From Deltaproteobacteria bacterium (GTDB lineage: Bacteria; Desulfobacterota; BSN033; UBA1163), in contig VGSS01000001.1 in assembly GCA_016874935.1 (NCBI GenBank), positions 21,823 through 85,822 of the forward strand: DNA of 64,000 nt. Reading direction: 5' to 3'. Positions 11,144-39,347 of this stretch are shown here, piece by piece. Under the pieces are notes generated by a model. That model searched no databases, was not told where the DNA came from, and saw only the letters and a list, made by a program, of their open reading frames with translations. The position numbers and the translations under genes were made by a program. Within the stretch, counting starts at the first letter, position 1, and every line of letters begins with the position of its first letter.

Positions 11144-11174
11144 AGCTTTAACAACTCTACATTTTAGATTTTTT

Positions 11175-11882: not shown

Positions 11883-11966
11883 TCAAGGGACCCTTTCGCC
11901 GGACTTGAACTATCTGTTTTGCTCTTTCGAGCCATGACTATCTGCAAATCAAATGACCCTCTCTCT

Positions 11967-13598
11967 TCAAAACGACTCCTCCTTAACCACCCCATGGGGA
12001 GAGACATAGACGATTCCTCTTTCCCTGCTTTTCTGGAGGAGCCTTCGAAGAAAGGGTTTCCCCTTCTTCAACGGCGGCTTAAAATCACCATACTCGTTAA
12101 AAAATCTCATGCGATCGGTTCTTGTGATCGTTTTGGGAACAGAGGTGTTGAGTTGGAGAAGATTTTTCATTAATCGTTTCTCATCCACATTGACATCCAG
12201 CCGGGTATCTTCGAGGTCGAGAAGGTAAAACTCCCATCGGTCTCCGCTCTTCTGCACCAGGATATTGCAGGCCTTCATGTCCTGATGGTAGATCCCCTTC
12301 TGATGAAGAGAAGATAGCCAACGGGCAAACGCTTTGACAAATGCCCTTTTCTTCTCCCTCTTCTCTAAATCGCTTAAAATATACCGGTCCATCTCAAGCC
12401 CATCCCGAAGGGCCTCCATAAACAAAAAACTTTCCCTTCTCCCCGACCAGCCTCTTCTCTCCAAAAGGGCCAGGGGGGTAATCGAAGAAACCCCTCTAAC
12501 TTTTAATCCATTTCCTCCGACCCACGCCCGAATTCCCTTCGAAGGGAGAAGATATCGACTCCACCGCCCTCCGCCATAAGAATAGATGAACTGTTTGACA
12601 TAAATATCTTTGTCTCCGCGCTTTAAGTAAGAAACTCTGCTTTTTGTATCTTTTTTGATCAATTCGCATGGCTCTCGGCTGGAGATCCGGAGGTGTTCTT
12701 CTACCCCCTGGATTACCTCTTCGAGGTCAAATTCCCTTCGGCGGTAGACGATTCGATCATTCTTTTTAACGACGGAGAACTCTGTGCTCTCTTTCAGGCA
12801 TCGTTTCGTTCTGCTCCGCCACTGCCTCTTCTGGAGGCGATCCATTGAAGAGTGGATTTTCATAAGATATTTTTTTTTCTTTTGCGAGGAGATTGAAACT
12901 CCTCCAAAATATCGGTCGAGAAACCTCAAATGCTCTTTCTCCCCCCAGATGGACCTTAAGGAGTGAAAGAGGTGGGACAGGTTCCATAATCTCTGATTTA
13001 GGGAGAGAGAACGGAGGAGTCTGGCGCGATGCAAATCGACAAGAAAGAAGGATTCTCCATTCCACAAGAAGTTGCCTGCGTGGAGGTCCTGGTGAAGCAA
13101 TCCCGATGCATGCATTCTTATTATCGTTTTAACCAGTTCCGCCGAAACCTTTTCATCCTTCAGTAGATCGGCGATTTCTGTCAATGAAACTCCTGATTCA
13201 ACGGCCTCCGACAGATAATAACTTTCTTTTACTAGACCACGATGAATCCGCTCTATCCACCCAAGGGGTTTGGGGATATTAAGTTTTCGCTTCTTCAGTT
13301 GATAGGCAACAAACCATTCTTTCCTCCCTTTTGAGGGAAAAACCAGATATTTCAATAATGCCATCCATCCTTTGGTTCGATCCCTTTTTAAAAAAATGCT
13401 CTTTCCGTTGGAGAGGGGATGGATAGCCGCCCATCGAAGCATTGATTTCTTGACCACCTTTCCTTCCATCTTTTGAACGGAAGAAAGTGGATCCTTAAAA
13501 TAAGCGGCGGGGAGAAGATTCCATACTTCTTCTTCCAACCATCCTTTGATATCGCCTTGAACTATTTTTTTATAAGAGGATATGGTCGTCTCCTTCAT
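11967..13598 (-). CDS. Tandem-domain lipopolysaccharide kinase (Kdo/WaaP/InaA family), two kinase-like domains fused
   Basis: Two catalytic-loop signatures: HQDLHAGNFLW..LVDLHRAR in the N-terminal half and YHQDMKACNILV...LLDLEDTR in the C-terminal half. At 543 aa it is about twice the normal family size. Confidence 0.7.
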   Translation of the reverse strand: MKETTISSYKKIVQGDIKGWLEEEVWNLLPAAYFKDPLSSVQKMEGKVVKKSMLRWAAIHPLSNGKSIFLKRDRTKGWMALLKYLVFPSKGRKEWFVAYQLKKRKLNIPKPLGWIERIHRGLVKESYYLSEAVESGVSLTEIADLLKDEKVSAELVKTIIRMHASGLLHQDLHAGNFLWNGESFFLVDLHRARLLRSLSLNQRLWNLSHLFHSLRSIWGEKEHLRFLDRYFGGVSISSQKKKKYLMKIHSSMDRLQKRQWRSRTKRCLKESTEFSVVKKNDRIVYRRREFDLEEVIQGVEEHLRISSREPCELIKKDTKSRVSYLKRGDKDIYVKQFIYSYGGGRWSRYLLPSKGIRAWVGGNGLKVRGVSSITPLALLERRGWSGRRESFLFMEALRDGLEMDRYILSDLEKREKKRAFVKAFARWLSSLHQKGIYHQDMKACNILVQKSGDRWEFYLLDLEDTRLDVNVDEKRLMKNLLQLNTSVPKTITRTDRMRFFNEYGDFKPPLKKGKPFLRRLLQKSRERGIVYVSPHGVVKEESF

Positions 13599-13689
13599 AT
13601 TTCATTTTCAAGATTAAAAATGATGGGCACTTGCTCCATTTAATATGGCAACCTTCTTTGCACCCGTCTCAATTTGATCCCTTACAACC

Positions 13690-14706
13690 TCAAATTTTCT
13701 CTGTCGCCCCCATAAGGGTTGATAAAAGGCGGGGGGCATTGGCCTCAATAGAATAATTTCTTTCCACAATCTCCCTTCCCTTAAGTCCCATTTCTTTTCT
13801 CAGTTCCCTTTCATGAATCAATTTCAAAAGACGATCCTCCCATTGAGCCTCATTTTGGGCCCAAAAACCATTCACCCCATCCTTTACAATCTCTCTGTTG
13901 ACTCCAACCGGTGTGCAGACCGCTGGAATACCTACACTGTTGTACTGAAGAATTTTCAAACCGCATTTTCCTTTTGACCAGAGATCATCTGCGAGAGGCA
14001 TTACACCAATATCAAAACTTTTAAGATCTTCCACCTCTTCTGCCAAGGACCATTTTTTCTTAATGATAGGCACGTTGGCAGAATCTATAAATTCGCTACA
14101 CACTATTTTAAGTTGGATATTAATTTGTTTTTTAAAGATATTTTCAAAGATTGGAATGAGGTTCCTTAAAAATCCTAAACCACTCCTGCTCCCAAACCAA
14201 CCAATGGTAATTGGCTTTGAGTGGTCAAAATCTTTTTTTAAAGTATATTGAGACAGATCGATAGAGGTAGGGATGATTACAACATTTGAATTATATGGAA
14301 GAGCCTCTGATTTCAAAAACTGATTTCCCGCGATCACCCCATCCACCCGTCTCATCATCAAGGCGAACTTTATCCTCCTCGAAAAGGAGTAAGGATTTTT
14401 CGATCTGGGGCTCCGGTACATAATAGCATCGTCAAAATCATAGATTATTTTTTTTGCCTTCTGCCGAATATACAAAAACTCTATCGGCGAAAAAAGTTTT
14501 CTTTGGATAAAAATGATGTCATACCCCCCTACCGTATTACAAAAACTCCATTTATCCAGGAACTTGTGTTTAAATAAATGAGTCGAAACATCCATGCCCA
14601 TTCTTTTTAGATAAGGGATAAATTGAAGTACGCGGTAGCGACAGCTGGGAGCTTCCGGATCATGAATCAAAAAGGCAATCTTCGTCATCTCTCCTAAGTC
14701 CTTCAT
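13690..14706 (-). CDS. Glycosyltransferase (GT-B fold, GT4/GT1-like)
   Basis: C-terminal GT-B nucleotide-binding pattern (…GIPAVCTPVGVNREIV…). Confidence 0.65.
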   Translation of the reverse strand: MKDLGEMTKIAFLIHDPEAPSCRYRVLQFIPYLKRMGMDVSTHLFKHKFLDKWSFCNTVGGYDIIFIQRKLFSPIEFLYIRQKAKKIIYDFDDAIMYRSPRSKNPYSFSRRIKFALMMRRVDGVIAGNQFLKSEALPYNSNVVIIPTSIDLSQYTLKKDFDHSKPITIGWFGSRSGLGFLRNLIPIFENIFKKQINIQLKIVCSEFIDSANVPIIKKKWSLAEEVEDLKSFDIGVMPLADDLWSKGKCGLKILQYNSVGIPAVCTPVGVNREIVKDGVNGFWAQNEAQWEDRLLKLIHERELRKEMGLKGREIVERNYSIEANAPRLLSTLMGATEKI

Positions 14707-14788
14707 TAAAGCTTTCGAGCCGCCAATAAGATAGGTTTTGCAAAATCGATTGAAAAAAAACGAAAAAAGGGAGTACAGAGGTAAATTT

Positions 14789-14914
14789 TCATGACGTATG
14801 TATAGATGGATTGGTATCTTTATCTCCTTCCTTTTTAAAATAGATTATGTATCGAAGTATGCGATAATGAGAGCTGGGAGCCTCTGGACCATAAATCAAG
14901 AAAGGGACCTTCAT
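14789..14914 (-). pseudogene. Duplicated 5' fragment (about 41 codons) of a glycosyltransferase gene paralogous to 13690..14706
   Basis: Translates to MKVPFLIYGPEAPSSHYRILRYIIYFKKEGDKDTNPSIHTS, compared with MTKIAFLIHDPEAPSCRYRVLQFIPYLKRMGMDVSTHLF at the start of the upstream gene. It is too short for the ORF track. Confidence 0.45.
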
Positions 14915-14917
14915 TTG

Positions 14918-16021
14918 TCAAACCATTTCTCCCATAAATTTTAAAAGATGCTCTTTTGTTATCTTTAAGGTGTAATGTTTGGCTACCCCAAGACCATTTT
15001 TGATACAATTTTCTCTCAACCCTTTGTCCTCCATAAATGCCAGAATCCCCTCAACTATTTTATCAGGCCTATGGGTCGGGACAAAATAAGCAAAATCCAT
15101 CTTCTCATCGAAATTTTTATAACTCGATATTTCAGTAAGTATGGAAGGCGCCCCGGAAGCAAGCGCCTCCATCGCTGGTAAACCAAACCCTTCAACTTCA
15201 AGGGAAGAAGAGATAAAGATATCGGTGTTTCGATAAAGGTTTGCCATCTCTTTTTCGGATAGTGCTTCATAGAATCTATCAACAATCTTCCCCTCTAACT
15301 CTTTTCTGGAGGGGGGAATAGGGGATACTCTCGTCAGGTCTACTTTGACCCCTTTATCTTTCAGCAATTTTATCGCATGGAGAGTATCCTGTATACCTTT
15401 GAAACCTACCTGCATCGAACCTACCGATAAAATTTTAATATTCCCGTTTTCTCCCCAAACTCTTTTTTCGTCATGATAGAAAATCCTATGATCTATCCCA
15501 TTCTGTATTAAATGACATTTCTGCCTATATTTCTTTTCTATTAGTTCCACAAGATGTTTTGACACAGCAGCTTTAACTGTTGGGAGCGCATAAATAGATT
15601 CAACCCTCTTGATCTTCCTCTTCGATTTCAGGACATTTAAATATTGCCTAATGCTGGAGTGAATCCCTCCCTTTAAATACTTCTCTTGTATAAATTCTTT
15701 TTTAATTCTTGCCATATACTTTATGGGTTCGTAACCTTGGCAAAGGTGAACTACTTTTCTCCTCTTATGTTTAAAGAGATATTCCACGTCACGAATGGTG
15801 GTTCCAACGAATAGGTCACACTCTGGAACATCGTCCAGAGGGTCGCTCCTCGAAATCGTCAATGCCTCGGCCCATTCTCCATACACATCCAGTTTTCCTT
15901 CAATTTTTCTCGTTAGGAGCACTGCTTCATACCCCATCTCTCTTAAGAGGGTTAAATGTTGTAAAACAACCTTGATTCCACCTGAAGTGCCGATATGGCC
16001 CATAAAATACCCTATTTTCAT
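14918..16021 (-). CDS. Family 4 glycosyltransferase (GT-B)
   Basis: GT4-like C-terminal EGFGLPAMEALASG motif. Confidence 0.75.
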   Translation of the reverse strand: MKIGYFMGHIGTSGGIKVVLQHLTLLREMGYEAVLLTRKIEGKLDVYGEWAEALTISRSDPLDDVPECDLFVGTTIRDVEYLFKHKRRKVVHLCQGYEPIKYMARIKKEFIQEKYLKGGIHSSIRQYLNVLKSKRKIKRVESIYALPTVKAAVSKHLVELIEKKYRQKCHLIQNGIDHRIFYHDEKRVWGENGNIKILSVGSMQVGFKGIQDTLHAIKLLKDKGVKVDLTRVSPIPPSRKELEGKIVDRFYEALSEKEMANLYRNTDIFISSSLEVEGFGLPAMEALASGAPSILTEISSYKNFDEKMDFAYFVPTHRPDKIVEGILAFMEDKGLRENCIKNGLGVAKHYTLKITKEHLLKFMGEMV

Positions 16022-25739: not shown

Positions 25740-26573
25740 CTACTGAAGTTTGAATTTGATGGGGATCGTCCCCCACTGTTCCGATTGGGCCTGATCCCTT
25801 GGGAGAGGAGCAAATCGCCACTGTTTCAGGTACTGTCCCGCAATCCGTTCCAGCTCCGTCTCCCCTTTAAGGGCAGGGATGACCCGGTCCACCATCCCAT
25901 TCGGTAAAACCCAGATCGTCATCTCAATTTCCGCTTCCACCTTCACCTTGACTTGGGGAGGCGACGGCCTTTCTAAAATTTTTCGTGACACCAGGGGGCC
26001 CTTGATCCCCAGTTGAAGGTTCTCATCCAGAACTTTCTCTGGCAAGGGCTTCTCTTTGGCAACAAGGAGCATTCTCTCGGCAATCTTCTCGGCGGCTCTG
26101 TCTCTCATCTTCTCTATTTTAGAAGCCTCTTTGATCGATGGGACAGGAGGTTCCGGAAGCAACTGGTCCTCTTTCTTTCCTAAATATTCTTTTAATTCTC
26201 TTTCCAGTTCCTTAAACTCCGGAGTATTCCTGATAGCCTTCATCCTCTCTTCATCTGTGGCGGCTTCTATCTTTTTCGGTCTGGGATATTCAGGGGCAAG
26301 AGACCTCCAGTCCTGTTGCGCGCTCGCTTCCTCCATCTTCTTCAGGATCACTTCCTCCCGGATTCTCTTCTCTTCCAGGGGAACCTCATCCCTTCTTTTC
26401 AATCCCAGAGTCCTTCCGGCCTCTTTGGTCAGGGATCGCCATCCCTGTTCGAGAGTAAATTGCACCGAAGGGATAAAAAGGAACGCCCATACAAAAATCC
26501 CCACTGCAATGATCAGGAGGCCGATCAGCAAGAGGAGTCTTTTTTTTCGGACTCGCTTCATCTCTTTTTTCAT
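25740..26573 (-). CDS. TonB-family protein (TM anchor, Pro/Glu/Lys-rich linker, TonB C-terminal domain)
   Basis: C-terminal ...TIWVLPNGMVDRV.IPA.KGETELERIAGQYLKQWRFAP...IPIKF resembles the TonB C-terminal fold. Start taken at MKKEMKRV, abutting the TPR gene stop. Confidence 0.55.
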   Translation of the reverse strand: MKKEMKRVRKKRLLLLIGLLIIAVGIFVWAFLFIPSVQFTLEQGWRSLTKEAGRTLGLKRRDEVPLEEKRIREEVILKKMEEASAQQDWRSLAPEYPRPKKIEAATDEERMKAIRNTPEFKELERELKEYLGKKEDQLLPEPPVPSIKEASKIEKMRDRAAEKIAERMLLVAKEKPLPEKVLDENLQLGIKGPLVSRKILERPSPPQVKVKVEAEIEMTIWVLPNGMVDRVIPALKGETELERIAGQYLKQWRFAPLPRDQAQSEQWGTIPIKFKLQ

Positions 26574-29500
26574 TGACGGGTTGTTCCCTCCCGAATCTGA
26601 TCGAGCATCCTCCTGGCCAGCCGGCGTTTTTCTTCCCGGCTCGCCATCCCAAGGAGTTTCTGATAGACCTGCCTCGCCTCCGCCCATCTCTTCTCCTCCA
26701 TATAGAGCGCTCCCAATTTCAGCAGAGCTTCCTCCACCAGCTCCGAAAGATGAGGGTAGAGGTAGAGGATCTTTGAAAATTGGAGGATGGCTGCTTCCCT
26801 GTTTCCCGCCTCTGCATAAGCCTCTCCCAACTTGAACTGGGCCTGGCTGGAAATTCTTTCTTCGGGACTTCGCAAGGCGGTCGAGAAAGAGGTAATGGCA
26901 TCCTGAAATCTCTTAAGGGTGAGATGGATAAATCCCGCTCTCAAATAGGCTTCAAACCGGGCCTCATCGTGAGGAAATTTTTCGATAAACTCCTTCAAAA
27001 TCTTTTCCGCTTCGTCAACCTTTCCCAGATTCCGATAGGCCTCCTCCATCCCCAGGGCGCTTCTCTTCGCTGGCGGCATTTGAGGGTGGTTCTTCATCAC
27101 CCATTCGAATCGTTCCAGTGCCTTGGGGTAGGCCTTGAGAAGAAGATGGAGCTCCCCCGCTTCGAGATGGGCCTCGATCAGGAGATGGCTTTTCGGATGG
27201 TTTTTAATGAATCTCTCCATCTCGTCCGAAGCCTCCATCCATCGTTTCTCTGACTTCAAAAGGAGGGCGAGGCGAAATTGCGCCTCCCCTGCCCATTCGC
27301 TCTGAGGGTAGAGTCGAACCGCTTCCTGATAAGTTCTTAAAGCCCTCTCCGTCATCCGGGATTGTTGGTAATATTCTCCCAATTGCATCAGCGCCTGACC
27401 CGTTAGGGGATGTTGGGGATAGCGCTTCAGAAAAGCTTCCGCCCGGGAGATGAAGGGTTCATACCTCTTCTCCTGAAAAAGGGAGAGGAGGATTCCATAA
27501 TCAGCTTCCGGCGCCTCCTTTGATTTGCCATGCTCCCTGATCAGCTGTTGATAGGCCTGAATGGCATTCCCGTACTGTTTGAGATTATAGAAACCATCGC
27601 CTATTTTTAACAGCGAGGAGACGACGAAAGGGCTTTCGGGGTATTGCCGGATGAGCCGCTGGAACTCTTCGATGGCCTTTTGAAAATCCTTTTTCCGGAA
27701 GTGGGACCAACCCGTCCAGTATTGAGCTTCGTCACGATAGGAACTCGAGGGGAAAGCCTCCCTCAACCCTTGAAAATGATTCAATGCCTCATCGAACCGC
27801 TCCTCCCTGTAAGCGATCCATCCCAGAAGATAATAACCCTTCTCCTTCCCCTCTTCTTCAGGCGAGTGAATCAGGCTCATCAAATGGGTTTTTGCCTGAT
27901 CATAATTGTTCTGGTTTAAATAACACTGGCCGATCAAAAGGGAGATGGGAGGGGTGGATCGATGATGGGGAAATTCGGCCGCAATTTTGAGAAAGTAATG
28001 ATTGGCCTCCTTCCACTCCTTTCTCTGAAAATGGTGCCACCCCAGATTGGTCAATCCCATGGGGTAGAGGGCAGGATCTCCTTTTAATTGATCCACATAT
28101 CTGACGCCATTTCGGTAATCCTCTTTCAGCAGGTGGCTCTCCGCCAGCCAGTACAAGACCTCGTTCTTCTCCGGGTGGTCGGGAAATTCCCTGAGAAGCC
28201 TTTCCCAGTATCCGATGGCTTCACCGTAATTTTTCAATAAGAAATGACCATATCCCAGCCTCGAATAGACCCGTTCTTCAAAATGCGCTCTCCTCTTCGA
28301 CCACAACACCTGCCGATAGGCGCCGATGGCGCCGGCATAATCCTTCTGATTGAAAAGGGATTCCCCTAACATAAAGTAGGCCCATTCCTGAAGGTCATTC
28401 TCAGGAAACGTCCTCAGGAACTGTTGGAAGGTGACAACGGCGTGGAGATATTCTTTTTTCTTAAAGTGGTATCGCCCGATATCGAAGAGGCTCTGCTCGG
28501 TCCAGGGCGAGGGAAGAAACTGGGAGAGGAATCTCTGATAGAATTGAATCGCCTTTTCTATCTCATCACTCCCCAGGTAACTCCTCAAAATTCCCCAGAA
28601 GATGGGATCAGACAGTTTTGTGCGGGGGAAGTTCAAAAGGATCTCTTCGAACGTCTTCCTTCCCCCGGTATAATCTCCAAGAGAGACCTGGCTCCAGGCC
28701 AGGGCATATCGGCCGCTCTCCTCTAACGGATGTCTGGGGTAGCGCCTTAAAAAGTTTCTGAAAAGTGTAACGGCCTCTTCATACTTCTGGAGCCTGAAGG
28801 TGTTGACGCCCATCAGATACTCTGCCTCCGGTCGCCATATCCCTTCAGGATGTTTCTTGAGATGAGTGTCAATCTCCTTGATCGACTCTGAATATCGCCC
28901 CAGGTGGTAAAGGCAGTATCCCGACCAGAAGAGAGAGGACTGGGCAATGGAGAGAACGGGATTCTTTTCGTAAGCCAGACGGAAGAATCGACTTCCCTCC
29001 TCATAGACTCCCTTCATCAGTTGAATCCATCCGCAGGAATAGAGGGCATAAGGGGTGAATTCACTGTCGGGATATTCTTCGACCACTTTCTTAAATAAGG
29101 AGAAAGCTTCTTCTGCCTTTTCCTGATGAAACTTTGCCTCTCCCATCCAGTAGATCGCAGAGCCTTTCAATAAGCTCTCCGGGTGTTCATCGACCAACCG
29201 CCGAAAAAGTTGTAAGGCATCCTCATAATTCCCCTGGAGATAGTGATGTCTTCCCCTTTCGTAAAAGGCCCTATCTCCGCTGGTCATCCCTCTCGTGAGC
29301 CTGCTCGTGTAAGCACAGCCGGGTTGGGTGGTGGATGGGCTCATCTTCTTCATCGGCCCGATCTGGTCTTCTCTCAGATCGAACGAGCCTGCGGAGGGCT
29401 CCTCTTTAATCCCCTGGGCCGAAATGATGGGAAGAGAAACTTCTCTCTCTTCCGTCCATTTCGTCTCCTCTTTGCCTAAAAAAATAATTTCAGGCGCTCG

Positions 29501-29602
29501 AATCCGACCCCGGCTCTGATCCTGACCTTTGAGGATAGAGAAAGAGAAGGTTAGGGAGAGGAGAAGAAGGAGGCTGAGAATCTTCGCTAACTTATTGAAC
29601 AT
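26570..29602 (-). CDS. Large secreted tetratricopeptide-repeat protein (1010 aa)
   Basis: N-terminal signal peptide, then many TPR-like A/Y/W-rich 34-residue repeats (…AYxxxGxxYxxxxxYxxA…). Confidence 0.8.
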   Translation of the reverse strand: MFNKLAKILSLLLLLSLTFSFSILKGQDQSRGRIRAPEIIFLGKEETKWTEEREVSLPIISAQGIKEEPSAGSFDLREDQIGPMKKMSPSTTQPGCAYTSRLTRGMTSGDRAFYERGRHHYLQGNYEDALQLFRRLVDEHPESLLKGSAIYWMGEAKFHQEKAEEAFSLFKKVVEEYPDSEFTPYALYSCGWIQLMKGVYEEGSRFFRLAYEKNPVLSIAQSSLFWSGYCLYHLGRYSESIKEIDTHLKKHPEGIWRPEAEYLMGVNTFRLQKYEEAVTLFRNFLRRYPRHPLEESGRYALAWSQVSLGDYTGGRKTFEEILLNFPRTKLSDPIFWGILRSYLGSDEIEKAIQFYQRFLSQFLPSPWTEQSLFDIGRYHFKKKEYLHAVVTFQQFLRTFPENDLQEWAYFMLGESLFNQKDYAGAIGAYRQVLWSKRRAHFEERVYSRLGYGHFLLKNYGEAIGYWERLLREFPDHPEKNEVLYWLAESHLLKEDYRNGVRYVDQLKGDPALYPMGLTNLGWHHFQRKEWKEANHYFLKIAAEFPHHRSTPPISLLIGQCYLNQNNYDQAKTHLMSLIHSPEEEGKEKGYYLLGWIAYREERFDEALNHFQGLREAFPSSSYRDEAQYWTGWSHFRKKDFQKAIEEFQRLIRQYPESPFVVSSLLKIGDGFYNLKQYGNAIQAYQQLIREHGKSKEAPEADYGILLSLFQEKRYEPFISRAEAFLKRYPQHPLTGQALMQLGEYYQQSRMTERALRTYQEAVRLYPQSEWAGEAQFRLALLLKSEKRWMEASDEMERFIKNHPKSHLLIEAHLEAGELHLLLKAYPKALERFEWVMKNHPQMPPAKRSALGMEEAYRNLGKVDEAEKILKEFIEKFPHDEARFEAYLRAGFIHLTLKRFQDAITSFSTALRSPEERISSQAQFKLGEAYAEAGNREAAILQFSKILYLYPHLSELVEEALLKLGALYMEEKRWAEARQVYQKLLGMASREEKRRLARRMLDQIREGTTRQ

Positions 29603-29814
29603 GGCATCACTCTATTTTTTAACCTATCAGAAAGATTGAAGGATTGTCAACCCTTCGGTTCCTGTCGGCCAAAGATCGGAAGGCTTACTCAGGGTTGACC
29701 CTGAGCGCAATTTCATCTCTCTCACCTTCGTCTTTCCTATGTTGAGCAGGATTTCGATTTTGTCGAAGGGGCAAGAATTGACAAGCATTTTATGAATATG
29801 ATAACCTTTTTTTA

Positions 29815-30555
29815 ATGAAGACAAAAGCCTATTTTATATTCGTATGGATCATACTTTTCGCTTTTTCTGCCGGATGTGGGGGGGACAGGAGGAGTTCAAC
29901 ATCGGACTCCAGGAGGGATTTCAAAACCATGCGTGAAAAGATGGTTGAAACACAGATTAAAAGCCGTGGGGTGAAGGATGAAAGAGTGCTCTCTGCCATG
30001 CTCAAGGTAGAACGTCATTGTTTCGTCCCGAAAGAATATGAATCCCAAGCCTATGCGGATCAACCCCTGCCCATCGGAGAGGGGCAGACTATCTCCCAGC
30101 CCTACATCGTTGCCTTGATGACGGAGTTGTTGGGTCTTAAGGGAGAAGAAAAGGTTCTGGAGGTCGGAACAGGATCAGGGTACCAGGCTGCCATTTTAGC
30201 GGAATTGGCCAAGGAGGTTTATACGATCGAGATTGTTGAGACCCTTGCTTCCTCTGCAAAGAATCTGCTCTTCGAACAGGGGTATCGGAACATCCAGGTG
30301 AAGGCAGGGGATGGCTATTTGGGGTGGCCTGAGGCTGCTCCTTTTGATGCGATCATCGTCACCTGTGCGCCTGACCACATCCCGAAACCTCTCCTGGATC
30401 AATTAAAGGAAGGCGGACGAATGGTCGTCCCTGTGGGAGCTCATTCTCAGGAATTAAAAAGGATCGTCAAAAGATCCGGAAAGATAGAGACGACGGATAT
30501 CACCCCCGTCCTCTTCGTCCCCATGACCGGCGAAGGCGTGAAGCAGAAGAAGTGA
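29815..30555 (+). CDS. pcm: Protein-L-isoaspartate O-methyltransferase with an N-terminal signal/lipoprotein-like extension
   Basis: TISQPYIVALMTELL...VLEVGTGSGYQAAILAEL motifs. The canonical core begins at MREKMVETQ (29929). The upstream 38 aa contain a hydrophobic helix plus FSAGC. Confidence 0.85.
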   Translation: MKTKAYFIFVWIILFAFSAGCGGDRRSSTSDSRRDFKTMREKMVETQIKSRGVKDERVLSAMLKVERHCFVPKEYESQAYADQPLPIGEGQTISQPYIVALMTELLGLKGEEKVLEVGTGSGYQAAILAELAKEVYTIEIVETLASSAKNLLFEQGYRNIQVKAGDGYLGWPEAAPFDAIIVTCAPDHIPKPLLDQLKEGGRMVVPVGAHSQELKRIVKRSGKIETTDITPVLFVPMTGEGVKQKK

Positions 30556-31200
30556 ACTACCACCAGCTACAAGATGGTGGATTCTCTACCGGCTGAAGTC
30601 GGCTAAAGAAAAACAGACCAGCACAGAAATTCTCGCGAGGGAAAACCTGAAAAACCTGCACACAGTGTGCATACTAAGGTCTTCGCCTAAAGGTGAGGGT
30701 TTTCCTCCCCGAGTGAGACAATAACTTTTATTTATAAATAAGGGATTGTATTTAGTTCTTCCTGAAACATGCAAGATTGCACTCTGTCCCGAATTTGAAG
30801 ACTTCAAACAGATACCTTCAGTCTCATCAAAGTGAAGATATTGGCAAGATATGCTCAGGTTTTTTAGTTTGATGCTACACCGGGGTTAAATCATTGCTTA
30901 CCCAACCATTACTGAAGAGTAAGTTTATCACCTTGGGGCAAGGCAATCCTGAATCACCAATCCCTTAAGTTTCCCAAAGAGAATCCACTTTTCCTTTTGA
31001 AATCAATCTTTAAACCCTATCTTGTTTGCCTCAATTTTACACAAATCTGAGTGACTTTTTTACCAAAAACCACAATTATTGTACGTTTTTCTAAAAAAGA
31101 AGGCTGGATGAATCAGACAGGGCAGGGACGATCTCAAGCTACAGCCACCGCAGACGATTCAGGATCTAAGAAATATAGGAGATGACTGGATATCATCTTT

Positions 31201-31236
31201 ACCCCATTAGAAAGTTTTCAACTTTCTAATGGGGTT
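31201..31236. promoter_or_regulatory. Perfect 15-bp stem hairpin (accccattagaaagtt tcaa aactttctaatggggt) in an ORF-free AT-rich region
   Basis: Inverted repeat read directly from the sequence; the RNA or regulatory role is unknown. Confidence 0.3.
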
Positions 31237-31651
31237 TGCGGAAACCCAGGGGAAAATGTCGGGGGGCTATGCACAACATAAACATATTGCTCCCTCCATA
31301 TCTCTGCTTAGAAGCGGGAATTGAAGAGGTATGAGGTATGTTAGGGGTAAAACCTGCTGTTTTTGGTCAGATTTGGACCAGGACCATTGATGTTAATATA
31401 AAATTACTCTTTAATTTGTAATTTAAATATTAAGTAGTTACGCATATGCGCTATGCTCTCTGCGCCATGCTTTTATTGTGGCACAGGAAATGCTAAAAAG
31501 ATTGCCATAATTTTCTTTTTTTGATATATTGGGTCAAATTCCAGTGGGGGGGGAGATCTCATGGATATTCTCAACAGAAGTCTATTCTTAAAAAGGAATG
31601 GTTTTTTGTTTTTGCGCTATGCACTTTGCGCTATGCGGGAGGTTGGTAGTC

Positions 31652-31834
31652 ATGCCAGCGATTGCACCGATCGAAGATTTAAAAGCTGCTCAAAAAGAAC
31701 TCTTAGAAACGTCGGATATTAATGATTTGAAAAAAGTTTTTAAGAAATATCGGCGTATTGGATGGAAAAATATCTGCAAGCTTTGGCTCGAAGAAGCTAC
31801 ACCAGAAAAATTGAAAGGCGAGGTAGGTGGATGA
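31652..31834 (+). CDS. Small hypothetical protein (60 aa), translationally coupled to the downstream ORF6N gene
   Basis: GGGAGG ribosome-binding site 9 nt upstream of the ATG. Its stop overlaps the ORF6N start (ATGA). No recognisable family. Confidence 0.4.
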   Translation: MPAIAPIEDLKAAQKELLETSDINDLKKVFKKYRRIGWKNICKLWLEEATPEKLKGEVGG

Positions 31835-32562
31835 ACGATAAAACATCCCAAGACGGATCTCTAATTCCGGCTGAACGTATCGAACGATCAATACTACTGA
31901 TTCGTCGGCAGAAGGTGATGCTTGATCGTGACCTGGCACAATTATACGGTGTCGAAACACGTGCCTTAAACCAAGCAGTCCGCAGGAATATAGAGCGGTT
32001 TCCCGAGGATTTTATGTTTCGTTTAACCCGCGAAGAGATATTTAGGATATCACAATTTGTGACATCCTCGGCCCACCTTGGGATCGAGACACTGAAATTT
32101 TCAAAGAATGTAAGGCTATTTACAGAGCATGGAGTTGCAATGCTATCCAGTGTTTTGAATAGTCCCAGAGCTGTTCAAGTCAATATTCAGATCATGCGGA
32201 CATTTGCAAAACTACGAGAGATTATATCTCTGAATAAAGATTTAGCCAGGAGATTGGATGAACTCGAAAAGAAATATGATGCCCAGTTTAAAATTGTTTT
32301 CGATGCCATCCGTCAGCTAATGGCATCCCCGGAGCCTGGATCAGCACCACCCAAGAGGCGAATTGGATTCCTTGTTGAGGAACCTAAAGTTCCTTATATC
32401 ACGAGAACGAAAAAGAAATCACATGACTGGCTTAGGGGTCAGGTCTCAACATTCAACATTCATCATGATGCCAACATTTGCACAATTCCATTTTGTCAAA
32501 TGTTGAGATCTGACCCTTTTTCTTTTCTTTTTCTTTTACAGGCGTGCCATATTGGGACGTAG
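31833..32562 (+). CDS. ORF6N-domain (KilA-N-like DNA-binding) protein
   Basis: LIRRQKVMLDRDLAQLYGVETRALNQAVRRNIERFPEDFMFRLTREE matches the ORF6N domain consensus. Confidence 0.7.
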
Positions 32563-32645
32563 TCGATTTGATAGAGTTCCCGGGCGAACCAGAGCCACTA
32601 TGGATCAGAAGCGGCGAAGGCCCCTTAGATTGGATTCCGAAGCCA

Positions 32646-33020
32646 TTAGTCAATTTTACCAATAAATTCCTTGGTGGCTCTCATATAGGCTTTAACAGCT
32701 TCTACGTCATAAATAAGCCCTCTATAATATCCAGCAATATGCAAAGCGTCATAGAGCTTCTCAAACTCCCTTAAAACCTTGCCATCGCGGACTACTAAAT
32801 ACTTCTGCAATGCCTTTCTATATGCATCTACTGACTTAGGAAGCTCTTTCTTCATTAACCCTTTTTTGATCAAATATTCATTAATAGCTTCTAAAATCGC
32901 AAGGTAAGCCGTTGCAAACGCTTCCCGCACAGGCTTAATATCTGTGTAGGTATTATCTTCTACGGGAACAGATTTTAATATCTCTTTTGCATTATTTAAA
33001 TATCGCAAGGCTTCTCTCAT
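32646..33020 (-). CDS. DUF5618-like small helical protein
   Basis: About 124 aa with the pattern EALRYLNNAKEILK...AYLAILEAINEYL...VDAYRKAL...LHIAGYYRG. Family assignment is from memory and should be confirmed by a profile search. Confidence 0.45.
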   Translation of the reverse strand: MREALRYLNNAKEILKSVPVEDNTYTDIKPVREAFATAYLAILEAINEYLIKKGLMKKELPKSVDAYRKALQKYLVVRDGKVLREFEKLYDALHIAGYYRGLIYDVEAVKAYMRATKEFIGKID

Positions 33021-33138
33021 TTGTAATTCCCCTCTCTATATCTATGGGAGATTTGCTTGTTCCTCCCATTCCCAATTTAAATCTAATCAAAAAAGGCATG
33101 GCTGTCAAATTTAAAACCGTTTTGGACATGAACCTCAA

Positions 33139-34488
33139 CTACTTTCCTTTTTCCATTTTCTTTTTTCTCCAGGCTTCGAGCCTCTCCTTGATCTCCTTCT
33201 CGAAACCTTGGTCGGTTGGGTGGTAGTAAATCTTTCCTTTCAGATTCTCAGGAAGGTATTCCTCTTCGATGAAATGATCCGGATAATCATGGGGATATTT
33301 ATAGTCCTTTCCATAACCCAGGGCCTCCATCAGAGAGGTGGGAGCATTCCGGATATGGAGCGGAACAGGCATGTTCTCAAGCTCCCGGACATCCTTCTGC
33401 ACTCCCTGAAATGCCGCATAAAGGGAATTTGATTTAGGAGCGGTTGCTAGATAGACAGCCGCCTGGGCAAGGGCCAGATTCCCCTCAGGTTGGCCGATGA
33501 AGTGAAAGGCTTGCATTGCAGAAACCGCCACTTGTAAAGCCTGGGGGTCTGCATTTCCTACATCTTCTGAAGCGAACCGGATCATCCGCCTCGCAATATA
33601 GAGGGGATCCTCTCCAGCCTCTAACATCCTTCCCAGCCAGTAGAGGGCCGCATCCGGATCACTCCCTCTCAGGCTCTTGTGGAAAGCGGAGATCAGATTA
33701 TAATGCTCCTCCCCAGACTTGTCATAAAGAAAGGTCTTTCTCTGGAGGACTTCCTCAAGATTTCTCGTGGTGATTTTACGGATCCCGTTTGGATCGGGCG
33801 GAGTGGTGATCACAATCATTTCCAGGGTGTTCAGACCGACTCGTGCATCGCCGTTGACCATTCGTGAGATCCTTTTAATTACCTCATCCTCAACCTCGGT
33901 TAGATACTGACCTAATCCCCTCTCCTGATCGCTCAATGCCCGGTTTAAAATGACCTCGATCTCTTCTTCGGTCAAAGCGCGGAGGGTAAAAACCTTAGCC
34001 CTGGAAAGCAGCGGTGAAATCACTTCAAAGGATGGGTTTTCCGTAGTTGCACCGATGAGGATGATTGTTCCTTTCTCGACATGGGGCAGGAAAGCGTCCT
34101 GTTGGGCCTTGTTGAACCGGTGGATTTCATCGACAAAGAGGATCGTCCTTCTCTTCCGGTACTTCCACTCCTCCCCCGCTTCGTGGACGACTTCCCTAAT
34201 CTCTTTCACACCGGAGAGCACGGCGCTGAAGGCGGTGAAATGACCGCTTGTGACGGACGCTATGAGCATTGCCAGGGTCGTCTTCCCTGACCCAGGCGGA
34301 CCCCAGAGAATCATGGAAGGAATGTGATCCGATTCAATGGCCTGACGAAGGACTTTGCCGGGCCCCAGAAGATGATCCTGGCCCACGAACTCTTCCAGCT
34401 TTTTCGGCCTCAACCGATCAGCCAGGGGAGCCTCTCTCTTGGAAAATTCCTTTCCTTTTCTCTCAAAAAGATCGGTCTGTTTTTTCAT
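33139..34488 (-). CDS. rarA: Replication-associated recombination protein A (RarA/MgsA AAA+ ATPase)
   Basis: Walker A GPPGSGKTT, Walker B VDEIHRFNKAQQDA, sensor motifs, and a C-terminal MgsA domain. Confidence 0.9.
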   Translation of the reverse strand: MKKQTDLFERKGKEFSKREAPLADRLRPKKLEEFVGQDHLLGPGKVLRQAIESDHIPSMILWGPPGSGKTTLAMLIASVTSGHFTAFSAVLSGVKEIREVVHEAGEEWKYRKRRTILFVDEIHRFNKAQQDAFLPHVEKGTIILIGATTENPSFEVISPLLSRAKVFTLRALTEEEIEVILNRALSDQERGLGQYLTEVEDEVIKRISRMVNGDARVGLNTLEMIVITTPPDPNGIRKITTRNLEEVLQRKTFLYDKSGEEHYNLISAFHKSLRGSDPDAALYWLGRMLEAGEDPLYIARRMIRFASEDVGNADPQALQVAVSAMQAFHFIGQPEGNLALAQAAVYLATAPKSNSLYAAFQGVQKDVRELENMPVPLHIRNAPTSLMEALGYGKDYKYPHDYPDHFIEEEYLPENLKGKIYYHPTDQGFEKEIKERLEAWRKKKMEKGK

Positions 34489-34511
34489 AGGATTTCGCTA
34501 TGCGCTCTGCG

Positions 34512-35324
34512 CTATGCGTTATTTGTCTCGCGTATCGCTTGAAGCATCTGCTCGTGGATCAGCCCATTGGATGCGACCAGAAGTCCTCCAGAATAGATAT
34601 CGAAAGGCCCCCCCTTTGGATCGGTCACCTTCCCCCCGGCCTCAATGACGATGAGGTTCGCTGCGGCCACATCCCAGGGTTGTAGCCTTAACTCCCAGAA
34701 GCCATCAAATCGCCCTGCTCCCACATAGCAGAGGTCGATGGCCGTAGAACCAGGTCTGCGAATGGCAAAGGTTTGTCTGATGAATTGATGAAAATAGCGA
34801 AGATAGTATTCTGGACGCTCCTGAACATCGTAAGGGAAACCGGTAGCAAGAAAACTCCTCTTCAATTGACTGGTTTGAGAGACAGAGATTCTCTTTTCAT
34901 TCAGAAACGCTCCTTCTCCTTTTTGGGCGACGAAGAGCTCTTCGAAGAGGGGGATGTATACCACTCCCAGGATCACTTCTCCGTCTTTCTCCAGGCCAAT
35001 GGAGACGGAAAAAAAAGGAAAACCCCGGTAATAGTTTGTCGTCCCGTCGAGTGGATCGATGATCCATCTCCAGGGAGACCCCTTCTCCTTAAAAGGACTC
35101 TCCTCTGTCAGGATGTCGTGGTCAGGGAAGGCATGATGAATCGCCTTCTGGATGGCCTGATCACAGAGCCGGTCCACTTCGGTTACCGGATTAAATTCTC
35201 CCTTAAAGGTGATGGACTGGGGCTGACCAAAGCGAGCCCTCTGGATCTTACCCGCCTCTTTGGCCGCTGTGATAGCCACCTCGAAATAGTGTTTATTCTC
35301 TTTCATCATTCTCCCCTTGATCAC
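34512..35324 (-). CDS. suhB: Inositol monophosphatase family protein (SuhB-like)
   Basis: DPLDGTTNY and WDVAAANLIV.EAGG motifs. Confidence 0.85.
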   Translation of the reverse strand: MIKGRMMKENKHYFEVAITAAKEAGKIQRARFGQPQSITFKGEFNPVTEVDRLCDQAIQKAIHHAFPDHDILTEESPFKEKGSPWRWIIDPLDGTTNYYRGFPFFSVSIGLEKDGEVILGVVYIPLFEELFVAQKGEGAFLNEKRISVSQTSQLKRSFLATGFPYDVQERPEYYLRYFHQFIRQTFAIRRPGSTAIDLCYVGAGRFDGFWELRLQPWDVAAANLIVIEAGGKVTDPKGGPFDIYSGGLLVASNGLIHEQMLQAIRETNNA

Positions 35325-35394
35325 CCTGATTTGACAACCTCATGGTTCAGACTATATGATACAAAGAAAATCAAGTCAATCATAAGCCCAATCC

Positions 35395-35548
35395 TCCCCT
35401 GCGGTGGAAACTGTGTCGTAATAGGGGAAACTAAAAAAATGTCATGCCGAACTTGTTTCGGCATCTAATCATTCCAAGAACTTACGAGACCCTGAAACAA
35501 GTTCAGGGTGACAAATTAGTAATTACGACACAGTCTCGTGGGGAGAGG
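35395..35548. repeat. MITE-like palindromic element, family R2, copy a
   Basis: Terminal inverted repeats ggaaactgtgtcgtaatagggg / agtaattacgacacagtctcgtgggg. Internal hairpins tgtcatgccgaacttgtttcggcatc and gaccctgaaacaagttcagggtgaca. Confidence 0.7.
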
Positions 35549-35569
35549 GAGGACGATGAGGAACGCCAG

Positions 35570-35971
35570 ATGAAATTCGTATCCGATGGAGGCTGTTTTG
35601 TGTGCGGCGAAAAGAATCCGCACGGATTAAAAATTAAGTTTCAGGTCGACCGGGATAAACAGAACATCCACACCACCTTCACTGTTGAGCCAACCTATCA
35701 GGGCTGGGATGGAATCGTTCACGGAGGAATCATCTGCACCCTCTTAGATGAGGCTATGGCCAATCTGGTTTATGAATTGGGCATGAATGCAATTGCGGCG
35801 TCCCTGGAGGTCAGATTCAAAAAACCGGCTCCAACCCTTCAACCTCTTATGGTCTATGGAGAAATCACGGAGGTGCATAAGAAATTGGTTAAGGCAAAGG
35901 CAAGCGTCACGAGGGAGGATGGAACGGTATTGGCCACGGGAATCTCCACCTTTGTCAGGCAGAGTCCGTAA
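35570..35971 (+). CDS. PaaI/4HBT-family hotdog thioesterase
   Basis: GIVHGGIICTLLDEAMA motif. True start at MKFVSDGG. The ORF-track N-terminal extension is read through repeat R2-a. Confidence 0.75.
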   Translation: MKFVSDGGCFVCGEKNPHGLKIKFQVDRDKQNIHTTFTVEPTYQGWDGIVHGGIICTLLDEAMANLVYELGMNAIAASLEVRFKKPAPTLQPLMVYGEITEVHKKLVKAKASVTREDGTVLATGISTFVRQSP

Positions 35972-35976
35972 AAACT

Positions 35977-36819
35977 TTATCCTGGTTGAAGAACCTTCAA
36001 AAAATTCAATCCTAAAATTTTTTTGCGATCCTCAATGGAAAGACCTGATTCCTCCAGTTCCTGAAAATATCTCGGAGGCCGAACCAGTGGAAAGTCCGAT
36101 CCGAAAATAATCTTCTCCGCGCCCACGATCTCGCTCACAATTCGATAGATCCTCTTCGAGTAAAGGAAGGGAGAGGCGGCTGTATCGTAATAGACATTCG
36201 CCATTGCCTTCTTCACCTCAGGCATTAACTCATAGAAGGGGAGCCCTCCTCCCCAGTGAGCCAGTAGAATCGGAAGAGATGGAAAGGTGAGGGCGAACTG
36301 GTAGAAAACCTCCAGAGGAGTTCCTCCTTTGCCGGGATAGGAATGACCGAGATGCTCATTGGCATGGAGAAGGATGGGAATCTTCTGATTCTCCATCTCT
36401 TGAAAAATCGGCCTCATCGATTCAATATCCTGAGCGGTCATCTCTCGATCGTAGAAAGCGATCTCTCCCACTCCCTTTGCTCCATTCTTTATCCTTCGAT
36501 CCAGTTCCATGGCAGACCATTCCGGATCTGAAAAGAGAAGAAGAATGAAAACGATCAACCGATGGGGATAGCGCGAGGCAGAATCAATCAGGTATTGATT
36601 ATGAAGAGCGCAGAGCTCTTTTTCTTCCCAGGGAAAACCGCAGATCACGGACTGCTCGATCCCGGCCTCATCCATTGAGGCAATCAACTCCTCTGCTCCG
36701 ACGAGCCTGGCTTTGGGATTTTTATAAACGGAAGAAAACCCTCTGTCCCTTAAACAGAAGGCCTCCCTATTCTTTTTCACCTCGTCAGGAAAGATATGGG
36801 TATGACAGTCGACGATCAT
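35977..36819 (-). CDS. Amidohydrolase-family (TIM-barrel metal-dependent hydrolase) protein
   Basis: N-terminal IVDCHTHIF metal-binding motif. Confidence 0.7.
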   Translation of the reverse strand: MIVDCHTHIFPDEVKKNREAFCLRDRGFSSVYKNPKARLVGAEELIASMDEAGIEQSVICGFPWEEKELCALHNQYLIDSASRYPHRLIVFILLLFSDPEWSAMELDRRIKNGAKGVGEIAFYDREMTAQDIESMRPIFQEMENQKIPILLHANEHLGHSYPGKGGTPLEVFYQFALTFPSLPILLAHWGGGLPFYELMPEVKKAMANVYYDTAASPFLYSKRIYRIVSEIVGAEKIIFGSDFPLVRPPRYFQELEESGLSIEDRKKILGLNFLKVLQPG

Positions 36820-36899
36820 GGCCTGCCCTTCCTCACTTTAGTCCCTTATGAATGAAATTGTGCGCGAAATGGTAACAAAGTTATTTTAGATTGAGCGGA

Positions 36900-37065
36900 T
36901 TTTAAATCCGAAGCACGAAATCCGAAATTCGAAACAATCTCAAATGACCAAATTTCAAATGTTCAAAATAGATAAAAGTTTAAGAAATTTGAATTTTGAA
37001 AATTCGAATTTGTTTCGGATTTCGATATTCGGATTTCGAATTTTATCAACCCCCAAAGCCTGTTT
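36900..37065. repeat. AT-rich palindromic element, family R3, copy 1 (cgaaatccgaaa ... ttcggatttcg arms)
   Basis: Arms cacgaaatccgaaattcgaaac and gtttcggatttcgatattcggatttcg flank an AT-rich spacer. A near-identical element is at 58285-58415. Confidence 0.65.
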
Positions 37066-39262: not shown

Positions 39263-39347
39263 GGAATTCACCCCGTTAGAAATAATGCCCCGCTCGGCTT
39301 CGAGTCCCGCTATAGCGGGACTGGAATTTCTAACGGGGTAAATCGAA
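39263..39347. promoter_or_regulatory. Nested palindrome: outer 13-bp inverted repeat ccccgttagaaat/atttctaacgggg enclosing a perfect 18-bp palindrome gtcccgctatagcgggac
   Basis: Read directly from the sequence. It lies between the anti-sigma 3' end and the NlpC/P60 5' end. Candidate terminator or operator. Confidence 0.4.

Follow-up and report, generated by a model that had tools for sequence, protein, structure and literature searches.

A probable layered accessory islet between the convergent rarA and pcm genes of an uncultured deltaproteobacterium

What occupies the AT-rich gap between the convergent genes pcm and rarA in an uncultured deltaproteobacterium, and do the three small genes found there act together? 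The gap covers positions 30556-33138 of a 64,000-nt stretch (positions 21,823 to 85,822 of the forward strand of contig VGSS01000001.1, assembly GCA_016874935.1; hereafter the window), and the contig is represented in freshwater-lake metagenomes. It begins with 1.1 kb free of credible open reading frames (ORFs), followed by a small ORF for a 60-aa protein, a gene for an ORF6N-domain protein and, on the opposite strand, a DUF5618 gene. A first look at the letters alone, made without database searches (the sequence-only reading), had proposed foreign DNA in which the three proteins might form an operon type not yet described, next to a gap of a size suited to a noncoding RNA (ncRNA). The answer that we favor, as probable although not beyond dispute, is a small accessory islet, built up in layers where the 3′ ends of rarA and pcm converge in an uncultured Thermodesulfobacteriota/Deltaproteobacteria lineage, and not one system. 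The rival explanations, all less well supported, are discussed where the evidence on them arises.

The setting of the gap was examined first among relatives. The flanking genes were assigned by Pfam as pcm (29815-30555, plus strand; PCMT, E=1.6e-68) and rarA (33139-34488, minus strand; MgsA_C/RarA, E=7.6e-76). When 185,579 species genomes were searched for RarA, nine relatives were recovered (RarA identity 80-84%; loci used for comparison carry L numbers), and in all nine the order 4HBT-suhB-rarA, convergent with pcm-TPR, is kept. The spacing between rarA and pcm is as follows:

L007, L010, L011 and L013: about 10-90 bp
L009: 300 bp
L005: 890 bp
L022: 1440 bp
L008: 3646 bp, with unrelated cargo including a putative sugar-transferase-like ORF (from reading of the sequence, not from Pfam)
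Window: 2583 bp

Because the gap differs in length and cargo from one relative to another, the segment is a variable islet at an insertion hot spot, and the 2583 bp of the window are one among many alternative fillings; a gene order universally conserved as core genome is not what the relatives have, and the suspicion of foreign or variable DNA was thereby borne out. Another locus, L006 (1869-2700), contains a second copy of the rarA 3′ end (2296-2380) beyond an inserted 114-aa coiled-coil ORF, and the DUF5618 gene next to rarA is truncated by a putative IS30-type transposase fragment, recognized by sequence reading. To judge from its sequence, this arrangement is direct evidence for repeated insertion at the rarA/pcm junction.

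The composition of the islet had also attracted attention, and the GC content was computed. The sharp drop is real, since the islet has 40.4% GC against 50.1% (26570-30555) and 48.8% (33139-37000) in the flanks and 47.4% in the whole window, and the 60 nt at 31381-31440 fall to 18.3%. Only 15 of 615 windows of islet size are equally poor in GC (standard deviation 3.1%). The minimum of the window is not in the islet but near 13.2-15.8 kb: further low-GC stretches, at 37-40% and thus below the islet, lie at about 11000-12000 and about 13200-15800, and may be further accessory DNA.

The first of three layers, an older one, would be the DUF5618 gene, which converges on the other two genes as the sequence-only reading had it, and which would be expressed from its own promoter:

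32646 to 33020, minus strand: DUF5618 gene, 124 aa, HEPN-like helical fold, monocistronic
33080 to 33108, minus strand: DUF5618 promoter-like site TTGACA-17-TAGATT, scan score 10/12

The family assignment, which had been made by eye, was secured by the profile search (PF18498, 127.4 bits against a gathering cutoff of 33, E=4.4e-37 in Pfam), and the protein has a HEPN helical-bundle fold and matches PDB 3mfn (E=1.5e-11). The family is large (2137 matches) and tightly conserved, with H94 and R100 invariant (H-x5-R) and R84 nearly so; inspection of the sequence did not find the canonical catalytic motif of HEPN RNases, R-x(4-6)-H, at conserved positions. In this respect the protein departs from the HEPN proteins of HEPN/MNT toxin-antitoxin (TA) and abortive infection systems. 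Furthermore, it is monocistronic and has no adjacent co-oriented MNT partner, as no ORF lies between it and either rarA or the terminator described below; a nucleotidyltransferase (DUF6036) comes after DUF5618 in L176-179 only. No papers on DUF5618 were found.

The neighborhoods of DUF5618 separate it from the rest of the islet. The stretch 32652-33113, which holds the gene and its upstream region including the promoter, is 78% identical in nucleotides to L176-179, where the order is rarA, DUF5618, a DUF6036 nucleotidyltransferase with an 87-aa gene, and pcm. Adjacency of rarA and DUF5618 is thus seen again in L006 and L176-179, beside other cargo and without ORF6N; in L180 and L181 DUF5618 occurs in other contexts, with no ORF6N nearby (the L181 contig stops at DUF5618), and it is present in none of 91 loci containing the small ORF. 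The proposal that the three proteins make up one operon type or system therefore fails on the DUF5618 side, and comparative sequence evidence indicates that DUF5618, with a promoter to itself, makes up an older layer distinct from the others and has been inherited beside rarA in a subclade. In L176 (4001-5331), the DUF6036 nucleotidyltransferase and the 87-aa gene come after the HEPN-fold DUF5618 gene, possibly as a HEPN/nucleotidyltransferase module whose HEPN-like half alone would survive in the window.

The second layer is the pair formed by the small ORF and the ORF6N gene, closed by a terminator:

31652 to 31834, plus strand: gene for the small protein, 60 aa, an unannotated, strongly conserved and helical family
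31831 to 32562, plus strand: gene for the ORF6N (KilA-N-like) protein, 243 aa, PF10543, its start overlapping the small ORF stop
32434 to 32537: intrinsic terminator, bidirectional and common to the convergent genes for ORF6N and DUF5618, with a 20-bp stem at 32434-32518 and flanks that are A-rich on the 5′ side and T-rich on the 3′ side

The small ORF is preceded by the ribosome-binding site (RBS) GGGAGG (31637-31642), and its stop overlaps the ORF6N start in an ATGA (31831-31834), from which cotranslation of the two proteins is predicted; the good RBS and the coupling had been recognized by the sequence-only reading, and the length needed correction from 61 to 60 aa. Its family comprises 758 cluster representatives at E<=0.01, nearly all of 59 aa and with 75-96% identity. 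Among 85 distinct gene copies, the ratio of nonsynonymous to synonymous divergence (dN/dS) is about 0.06, with dS about 1.5, and the entropy of the third codon position is 1.10 compared with 0.41 and 0.25 for the other two. Both measures indicate that the small ORF is an old and strongly constrained protein gene and not a conserved DNA element.

The small protein does not resemble any described family. It has no match in Pfam, NCBIfam, PHROG or PADLOC, and a profile search of 1.84 billion representatives returned only small proteins or fragments of the same family, with no link to a known one; a lone outlier of 5768 aa stands among the matches. The AlphaFold2 model consists of four short helices (predicted local distance difference test score, 85) and has no significant fold match, nor does the protein have similarity in sequence or fold to helix-turn-helix (HTH) controller proteins. 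No relatives of the small ORF were found in IMG/VR (2.9 million contigs).

Is the small ORF then an obligate partner of ORF6N? Downstream sequence was sufficient in 71 distinct copies, and in 16 of them an ORF6N gene lies immediately 3′ of the small ORF, with a spacing of <=6 nt in seven of these; an ORF6N gene lies 5′ of it in 15 of 64 copies. Otherwise, the gene behind the small ORF is usually 25-150 nt away, on the same strand and highly varied; by Pfam, it may be a DDE transposase, an Eco57I/MmeI-type restriction-modification (RM) enzyme, an N6 or C5 methylase, Fic, DUF1016/YhcG, a MazG-like protein, SNF2 with NOV_C, AAA_14/DUF4143, AAA_21, RadC, RNase D, an XRE HTH protein, PBECR2, AbiEi or an MNT-type transferase. 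Tight coupling of the small ORF to ORF6N was found in the window, L150, L165, L168 and L200, with ORF6N identities of 64% to 81% in the latter four. The question was also approached from the other side, with four close ORF6N homologues (81-86% identical; L199-L202) picked regardless of the small ORF. L200 has a coupled 59-aa gene, and the two genes stand as an islet flanked by purA and a cystatin-like gene; of the small ORF, L201 retains only a relic, the last ~20 nt; L199 has no small ORF and retains the terminator and repeats; and L202 has neither the small ORF nor remnants of it. On these sequence comparisons, the pair is recurrent and inherited as a unit over considerable divergence, and neither gene needs the other, which disposes of the obligate partnership.

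The same counts bear on the explanation that the two genes are a type II TA pair, with the 60-aa protein as antitoxin and autorepressor and ORF6N as toxin. Such a pair would agree with the ATGA overlap of a small upstream gene with a larger one, with direct repeats by the RBS that resemble an operator (see below), with the presence of related copies among BrnT/BrnA, HigB, PIN, HicAB and MNT cassettes, and with the position of the small gene ahead of many toxin-like genes (Fic, PBECR2, PIN), as is the case for promiscuous antitoxins. However, the two genes do not occur together consistently (16 of 71 copies, and one of the four independent ORF6N homologues), and close ORF6N homologues stand alone in L199, L202 and L182. 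The small ORF is likewise found alone beside housekeeping genes, namely RNase D (L131) and putative SDR-like and RluA-like ORFs (by sequence reading), and its cargo includes nontoxin genes such as transposases, methylases and RM enzymes. Moreover, ORF6N is a DNA-binding domain with, to our knowledge, no toxic activity, and the window protein matched no toxin family in Pfam, PADLOC, NCBIfam or PHROG. A TA pair is therefore an improbable explanation.

The ORF6N protein can also be considered in its own right. Its identity was upheld by PF10543 (105.9 bits against a gathering cutoff of 27.8, E=1.4e-30, residues 20-108), and a Pfam scan at E<=0.1 detected ORF6N only and no Virulence_RhuM domain; the search against solved structures by sequence gave nothing significant, and the literature on ORF6N offered incidental mentions only. 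The possible link to defense, raised by the sequence-only reading, gained in substance, as the first ~165 residues match three profiles of PADLOC PDC-S05, a candidate phage-defense class of single-gene ORF6N/RhuM-type proteins enriched in defense islands (PDLC04856, E=2.2e-50; PDLC04869, E=2.3e-49; PDLC04849, E=8.4e-37). The relatives of the window protein are also located in defense and TA islands, near TIR, Fic, Mrr, cyclic-oligonucleotide-based antiphage signaling system (CBASS) and RM genes. What sets the window gene apart from that class is its translational coupling to an additional gene, of 60 aa and no part of PDC-S05, and the abnormal 40-aa C-terminal tail of its product. In E. coli, one PDC-S05 representative, a protein with a Virulence_RhuM domain, reportedly lowered plating about 1000-fold for T7 and T5 (bioRxiv 10.1101/2024.09.26.614923). 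An antiphage activity of the window protein may be supposed by analogy, and the protein, cotranslated with the small protein, would likely be an effector or sensor acting via DNA binding.

The tail coincides with the terminator. The close homologues finish at 189-199 aa, and the window copy continues for ~40 atypical codons through the hairpin (32434-32518; RNA fold -44 kcal/mol, z-score -5.05), a strong bidirectional terminator that would close both the small ORF-ORF6N operon and the convergent DUF5618 gene. Within the ORF6N coding sequence, the palindrome TCACAATTTGTGA and variants of it fall in the region for the conserved SQ(F/I)VTS motif (window 32046-32068; also L095 677-700, 731-748 and 987-1003, and the L085 repeat family D4). 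Near-identical palindromes occur in noncoding DNA 5′ of ORF6N genes in arrays, and may represent an operator imitating the coding sequence.

ORF6N/KilA-N proteins are typical of phages, and the segment could accordingly be what is left of an integrated prophage or other integrative element whose antirepressor was ORF6N. The window protein has the N-terminal ORF6N domain of phage antirepressor-like proteins and its best PHROG match is “anti-repressor” (E=6e-28), and the low GC, gene stumps and repeats of the segment are in line with such an origin. The phage signal otherwise fades: the gene is chromosomal and without phage context, the viral relatives of its product are distant (38-56% identity, over the domain only), and the small ORF is absent from IMG/VR. 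Among the islet ORFs (30556-33138) there is no integrase and no phage structural or replication gene, no duplication of attachment (att) sites was detected in the islet, no tRNA occurs in the whole window, and related copies reside in chromosomal defense and TA arrays, not in prophages. Of all the explanations considered, a prophage remnant is the least probable. The islet itself is better described as a typical flexible islet with one candidate defense gene, of the PDC-S05 class, and one HEPN-like orphan.

The question of how the small-ORF operon of this islet would be controlled leads to the region upstream of it, which contains the following features:

31290 to 31446, plus strand: noncoding blocks, conserved and shared with L149 and L097, that precede the small-ORF unit and take in the 18% GC segment
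31447 to 31470, plus strand: heptamer direct-repeat run 1 (GCGCTAT GCTCTCT GCGCCAT GC)
31502 to 31530, plus strand: sigma-70-type promoter TTGCCA-17-TATATT with an extended -10 TG, score 10/12, then the G-rich leader GGGTCAAATTCCAGTGGGGGGGG
31582 to 31613, plus strand: weak intrinsic-terminator-like hairpin with a T-run in the leader, the stem degraded to 6 bp in the window
31613 to 31636, plus strand: heptamer direct-repeat run 2 (GCGCTAT GCACTTT GCGCTAT GC), directly 5′ of the RBS

Positions 31290-31381 are 80% identical to L149 2213-2296, and from 31378 on the identity to L097 4672-4883 is 86%, with the AT-rich part nearly identical. The promoter and G-rich box are kept in 12 distinct sequences from other loci. 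The terminator-like hairpin is the sole consensus structure that alifold finds in 10 related leaders, with two-sided changes at three pairs, and is possibly, as far as sequence can tell, an attenuator. Just past run 1 comes a sigma-54-like box TGGCAC-N5-ATGC (31479-31494), whose conservation extends to L097 and, in looser form, to L149, L142 and L146.

The heptamer runs are concentrated at the small ORF. The window has three matches where none is expected, and their density is 0.94/10 kb in small-ORF loci compared with 0.01/10 kb in distant rarA loci. A run lies <=70 nt from the ATG in 12 of 77 small-ORF copies under strict matching and in 24 of 77 with <=2 mismatches, compared with 0.3% and 0.9% of random windows, a 35-50-fold enrichment; the end of the run is always 17-21 nt upstream of the ATG. 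Most likely, the promoter, the G-rich leader, the leaky terminator and the heptamer run before the RBS drive expression of the 60-aa protein. This arrangement is reminiscent, by functional analogy only, of RM controller (C) proteins and of autoregulated TA operons, in which a very small helical protein is encoded first, direct repeats occur at a fixed upstream distance and potentially harmful cargo comes later in the same transcript; it differs from C proteins in that the small protein has no HTH similarity. The small protein would be a portable accessory gene ahead of varied defense, TA and mobile genes, and we would guess that its role is to gate or modulate the expression or activity of the gene that follows, possibly as a small autoregulator acting on the heptamer repeats, as the C proteins of RM systems do.

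The remainder of the ORF-free 1.1 kb would form the third layer, made up of an insertion, a gene stump and a palindromic repeat that goes back to the ends of GIY-YIG mini-elements:

30556 to 30730, no strand assigned: 175-nt repeated element with three hairpins, between the pcm stop and conserved pcm-downstream sequence
30731 to 30767, no strand assigned: ancestral pcm-downstream intergenic DNA, 86% identical to L008 10451-10415, which abuts the pcm stop
31077 to 31165, plus strand: remnant of an ARPP-1 (PF20208) gene, its last ~25 codons, a pseudogene stump
31201 to 31235, no strand assigned: perfect 16-bp-stem palindrome ACCCCATTAGAAAGTT/AACTTTCTAATGGGGT, a minimal member, like a repetitive extragenic palindrome (REP), of a dispersed repeat family

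The stretch was rightly described as lacking a credible ORF: none longer than 73 aa exists in 30556-31651 on either strand, and tblastx matches to related loci are equal in all frames, meaning that there is no coding signal apart from the ARPP-1 stump. The stump is 87.7% identical (31101-31165, blastn) to the 3′ end of a 326-aa gene of L097, whose intact product is ARPP-1 (E=1.2e-97), and it matches residues 300-320 at 54% identity (tblastn). The 175-nt element is 88.6% identical to L131 2526-2701, which comes from another context and contig of the same metagenome sample. The insertion is clean, since TTTATAA..GGGATTGTATTT stands immediately after the pcm stop in L008. Within it lies the palindrome TGCACACAGTGTGCA (30658-30672), which had been seen near 30655. 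The element has no match in the viral collections or in Rfam.

Could this stretch nevertheless encode one or more functional ncRNAs, for example a long regulatory RNA or a riboswitch for the operon? The conserved promoter, the G-rich 5′ segment and the terminator would yield an RNA of ~75-90 nt, and the hairpins of the 175-nt element are kept in its two diverged copies via G-U changes. These amount to three one-sided pair changes and no compensatory change in two copies only, and the stability of the element is moderate (fold z-score -2.3 on either strand). An Rfam cmscan of 30400-33300 gave at best 19-22 bits against gathering thresholds of 37-75, all for eukaryotic families and attributable to chance; apart from these, no family was found at E<=1, and none at E<=0.1 in the related loci L085, L095 and L100. 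Fold z-scores reach only -2.1 to -2.3, there are no compensatory pairs outside the terminator, and the stretch consists of blocks with separate histories, one of them a gene stump. Two specific candidates were also rejected: a single structured RNA across the leader, for which alifold backs the terminator hairpin only, and a sigma-70 promoter, considered by eye, from which the 175-nt element would be transcribed in antisense, which has a -35 of only 3/6 and was not called by the scan. A functional ncRNA is thus very improbable. From its sequence, the gap is pieced together from five or more repeated or remnant blocks that are unrelated to one another, and is not one long RNA, and the notion of a single ncRNA-sized gene was abandoned.

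The last of the blocks in this patchwork connects the islet to a wider family. The perfect hairpin that the sequence-only reading had placed at 31201 is indeed there, with arms of 16 nt, not 15, and a span of 31201-31235 (arms 31201-31216 and 31220-31235, 100% complementary, 3-nt loop, DNA fold z-score -7.5). The two arms correspond to ACCCCGTTAGAAAT/ATTTCTAACGGGGT, the inverted ends found in a dispersed family of elements, also labeled by ACCCCGTTAGAAA, where they form the terminal inverted repeats of small GIY-YIG-encoding elements. A second copy of 70 nt (ACCCCGTTAGAAAT...ATTTCTAACGGGGT) is intergenic at 39270-39339, far from the islet, which makes the palindromic family a dispersed genomic repeat. 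Copies are present in the window (31201, 39270) and in L086, L088-95, L100, L103, L131, L150, L151, L166-168 and L173, the short hairpin form being found also in L131 (1-40) and L167. Interiors vary from 3 to about 255 nt, with an arm spacing of 82-110 nt in many loci. The long versions (L086 6630-6917, L100 833-1111, L151 43-321, L168 and L173) have 267 nt between arm starts and a total length of ~280 nt; the one in L086 contains an 86-aa GIY-YIG gene (E=2.5e-17), and the last codons of the gene fall in the terminal repeat. The family is like repeats of the REP type or of the MITE (miniature inverted-repeat transposable element) type in being dispersed, with conserved inverted arms, variable interiors and two copies in the window, and differs from them in that its long members encode an 86-aa GIY-YIG nuclease and not a known transposase. 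We know of no described mobile-element family of this GIY-YIG palindromic form, and the literature search yielded nothing relevant on such mini-elements.

Both genes of the pair are interrupted by small inserts in other loci. In L095 (1046-1139 and 2340-2438; also L088-94 and L109), elements with the family inverted ends and an arm-to-arm spacing of 82-87 nt sit inside two paralogous ORF6N genes and break each of them at one and the same codon (AFT|E(H/Q)G). Precise removal of the inserts would restore the reading frame, and a possible 2-3-nt AC(C/G) duplication flanks them; the splitting could be a site-specific insertion or an intron-like feature. Small-ORF copies in L095 (181-275, 3313-3424 and 4732-4846) are broken after codon ~42 (...WKNVC) by inserts of 95-115 nt that start with GGAGCCCC, finish with GGGGCA(A/G) and have no Rfam match. 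Splitting of the small ORF is common, as many library representatives match only residues 1-42 or 30-59.

Several small-ORF loci are same-strand arrays rich in TA and defense genes. In L182 (3793-17453), 22 same-strand genes extend over 13.6 kb, with tctC on one side and a Fer4_16 gene on the other; no integrase occurs within 20 kb, and the genes include MNT, BrnTA, DUF1016, two ORF6N genes, DUF433/PIN, the small ORF, TIR, an AEP-like gene, Mrr and Fic; L088-92 contain a similar array beside tctCBA. Such arrays raise the possibility that the unit in the window is a cassette that strayed from an array of the integron-like or another cassette-exchanging kind, in which the heptamer runs and the small ORF serve as the recombination site. 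Arrays of this kind, as in L182 and also L085 and L088-95, would be expected, and in L095 the junctions that repeat each 1.4-1.7 kb consist of heptamer runs with intact or degenerate small-ORF copies, the similarity between units stopping at the last codons of the small ORF. However, no integrase was found in any array seen, including 20 kb around L182, and no attC-like R''/R' cores were identified, with no dedicated attC model run. Strong protein-level selection on the small ORF would be needless for a pure recombination site, and the window holds a single unit, with DUF5618 on the opposite strand. We regard a stray cassette as quite improbable.

A bolder interpretation, which is unlikely in our estimation and the least so of the alternatives, is that the 59/60-aa protein and its leader are an unrecognized portable “front-end” module, placed ahead of dozens of unrelated defense, toxin and mobile genes in uncultured Thermodesulfobacteriota-like bacteria. 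The module would either control expression or be a homology anchor for the swapping of cargo, with ORF6N as its commonest cargo, and the GIY-YIG palindromic mini-elements would parasitize both genes.

Several observations weigh against the layered islet as we have drawn it. The small ORF is absent beside three of the four independently chosen ORF6N genes, one of which has the 3′-end relic. The heptamer run accompanies only about a third of the small-ORF copies, which is a further difference from C proteins, and a run of the same heptamer repeat (CGCTATG, three to four times) fills the suhB-rarA spacer (window 34495-34517, L010 5951-5977 and L005 ~967), far from any small ORF. The window ORF6N protein lacks the Virulence_RhuM domain of the phage-tested PDC-S05 representative, and its gene may be decaying, as the loss of the normal stop and the 40-aa tail through the terminator suggest. 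Finally, since the relatives are distant (~80-84% RarA identity), the preference for “insertion here” over “loss elsewhere” rests on parsimony and composition.

For the window itself, the ideas of a three-protein system and of a long ncRNA are thus removed, and the segment is real but fairly ordinary accessory DNA. The small-protein family, so far unannotated, may be of more use than the islet, and it merits further attention together with the mini-elements found elsewhere inside the small ORF and ORF6N. This family, which has hundreds of near-identical members, evolves under very strong purifying selection, is absent from Pfam, NCBIfam, PHROGs and PADLOC and lies repeatedly ahead of defense and toxin genes, is a possible marker for defense islands in poorly studied anaerobes. 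If the small protein regulates or mobilizes its cargo, it would show how such islands are assembled, and if the front-end module is indeed a homology anchor, it would represent a cassette-exchange system distinct from integrons.

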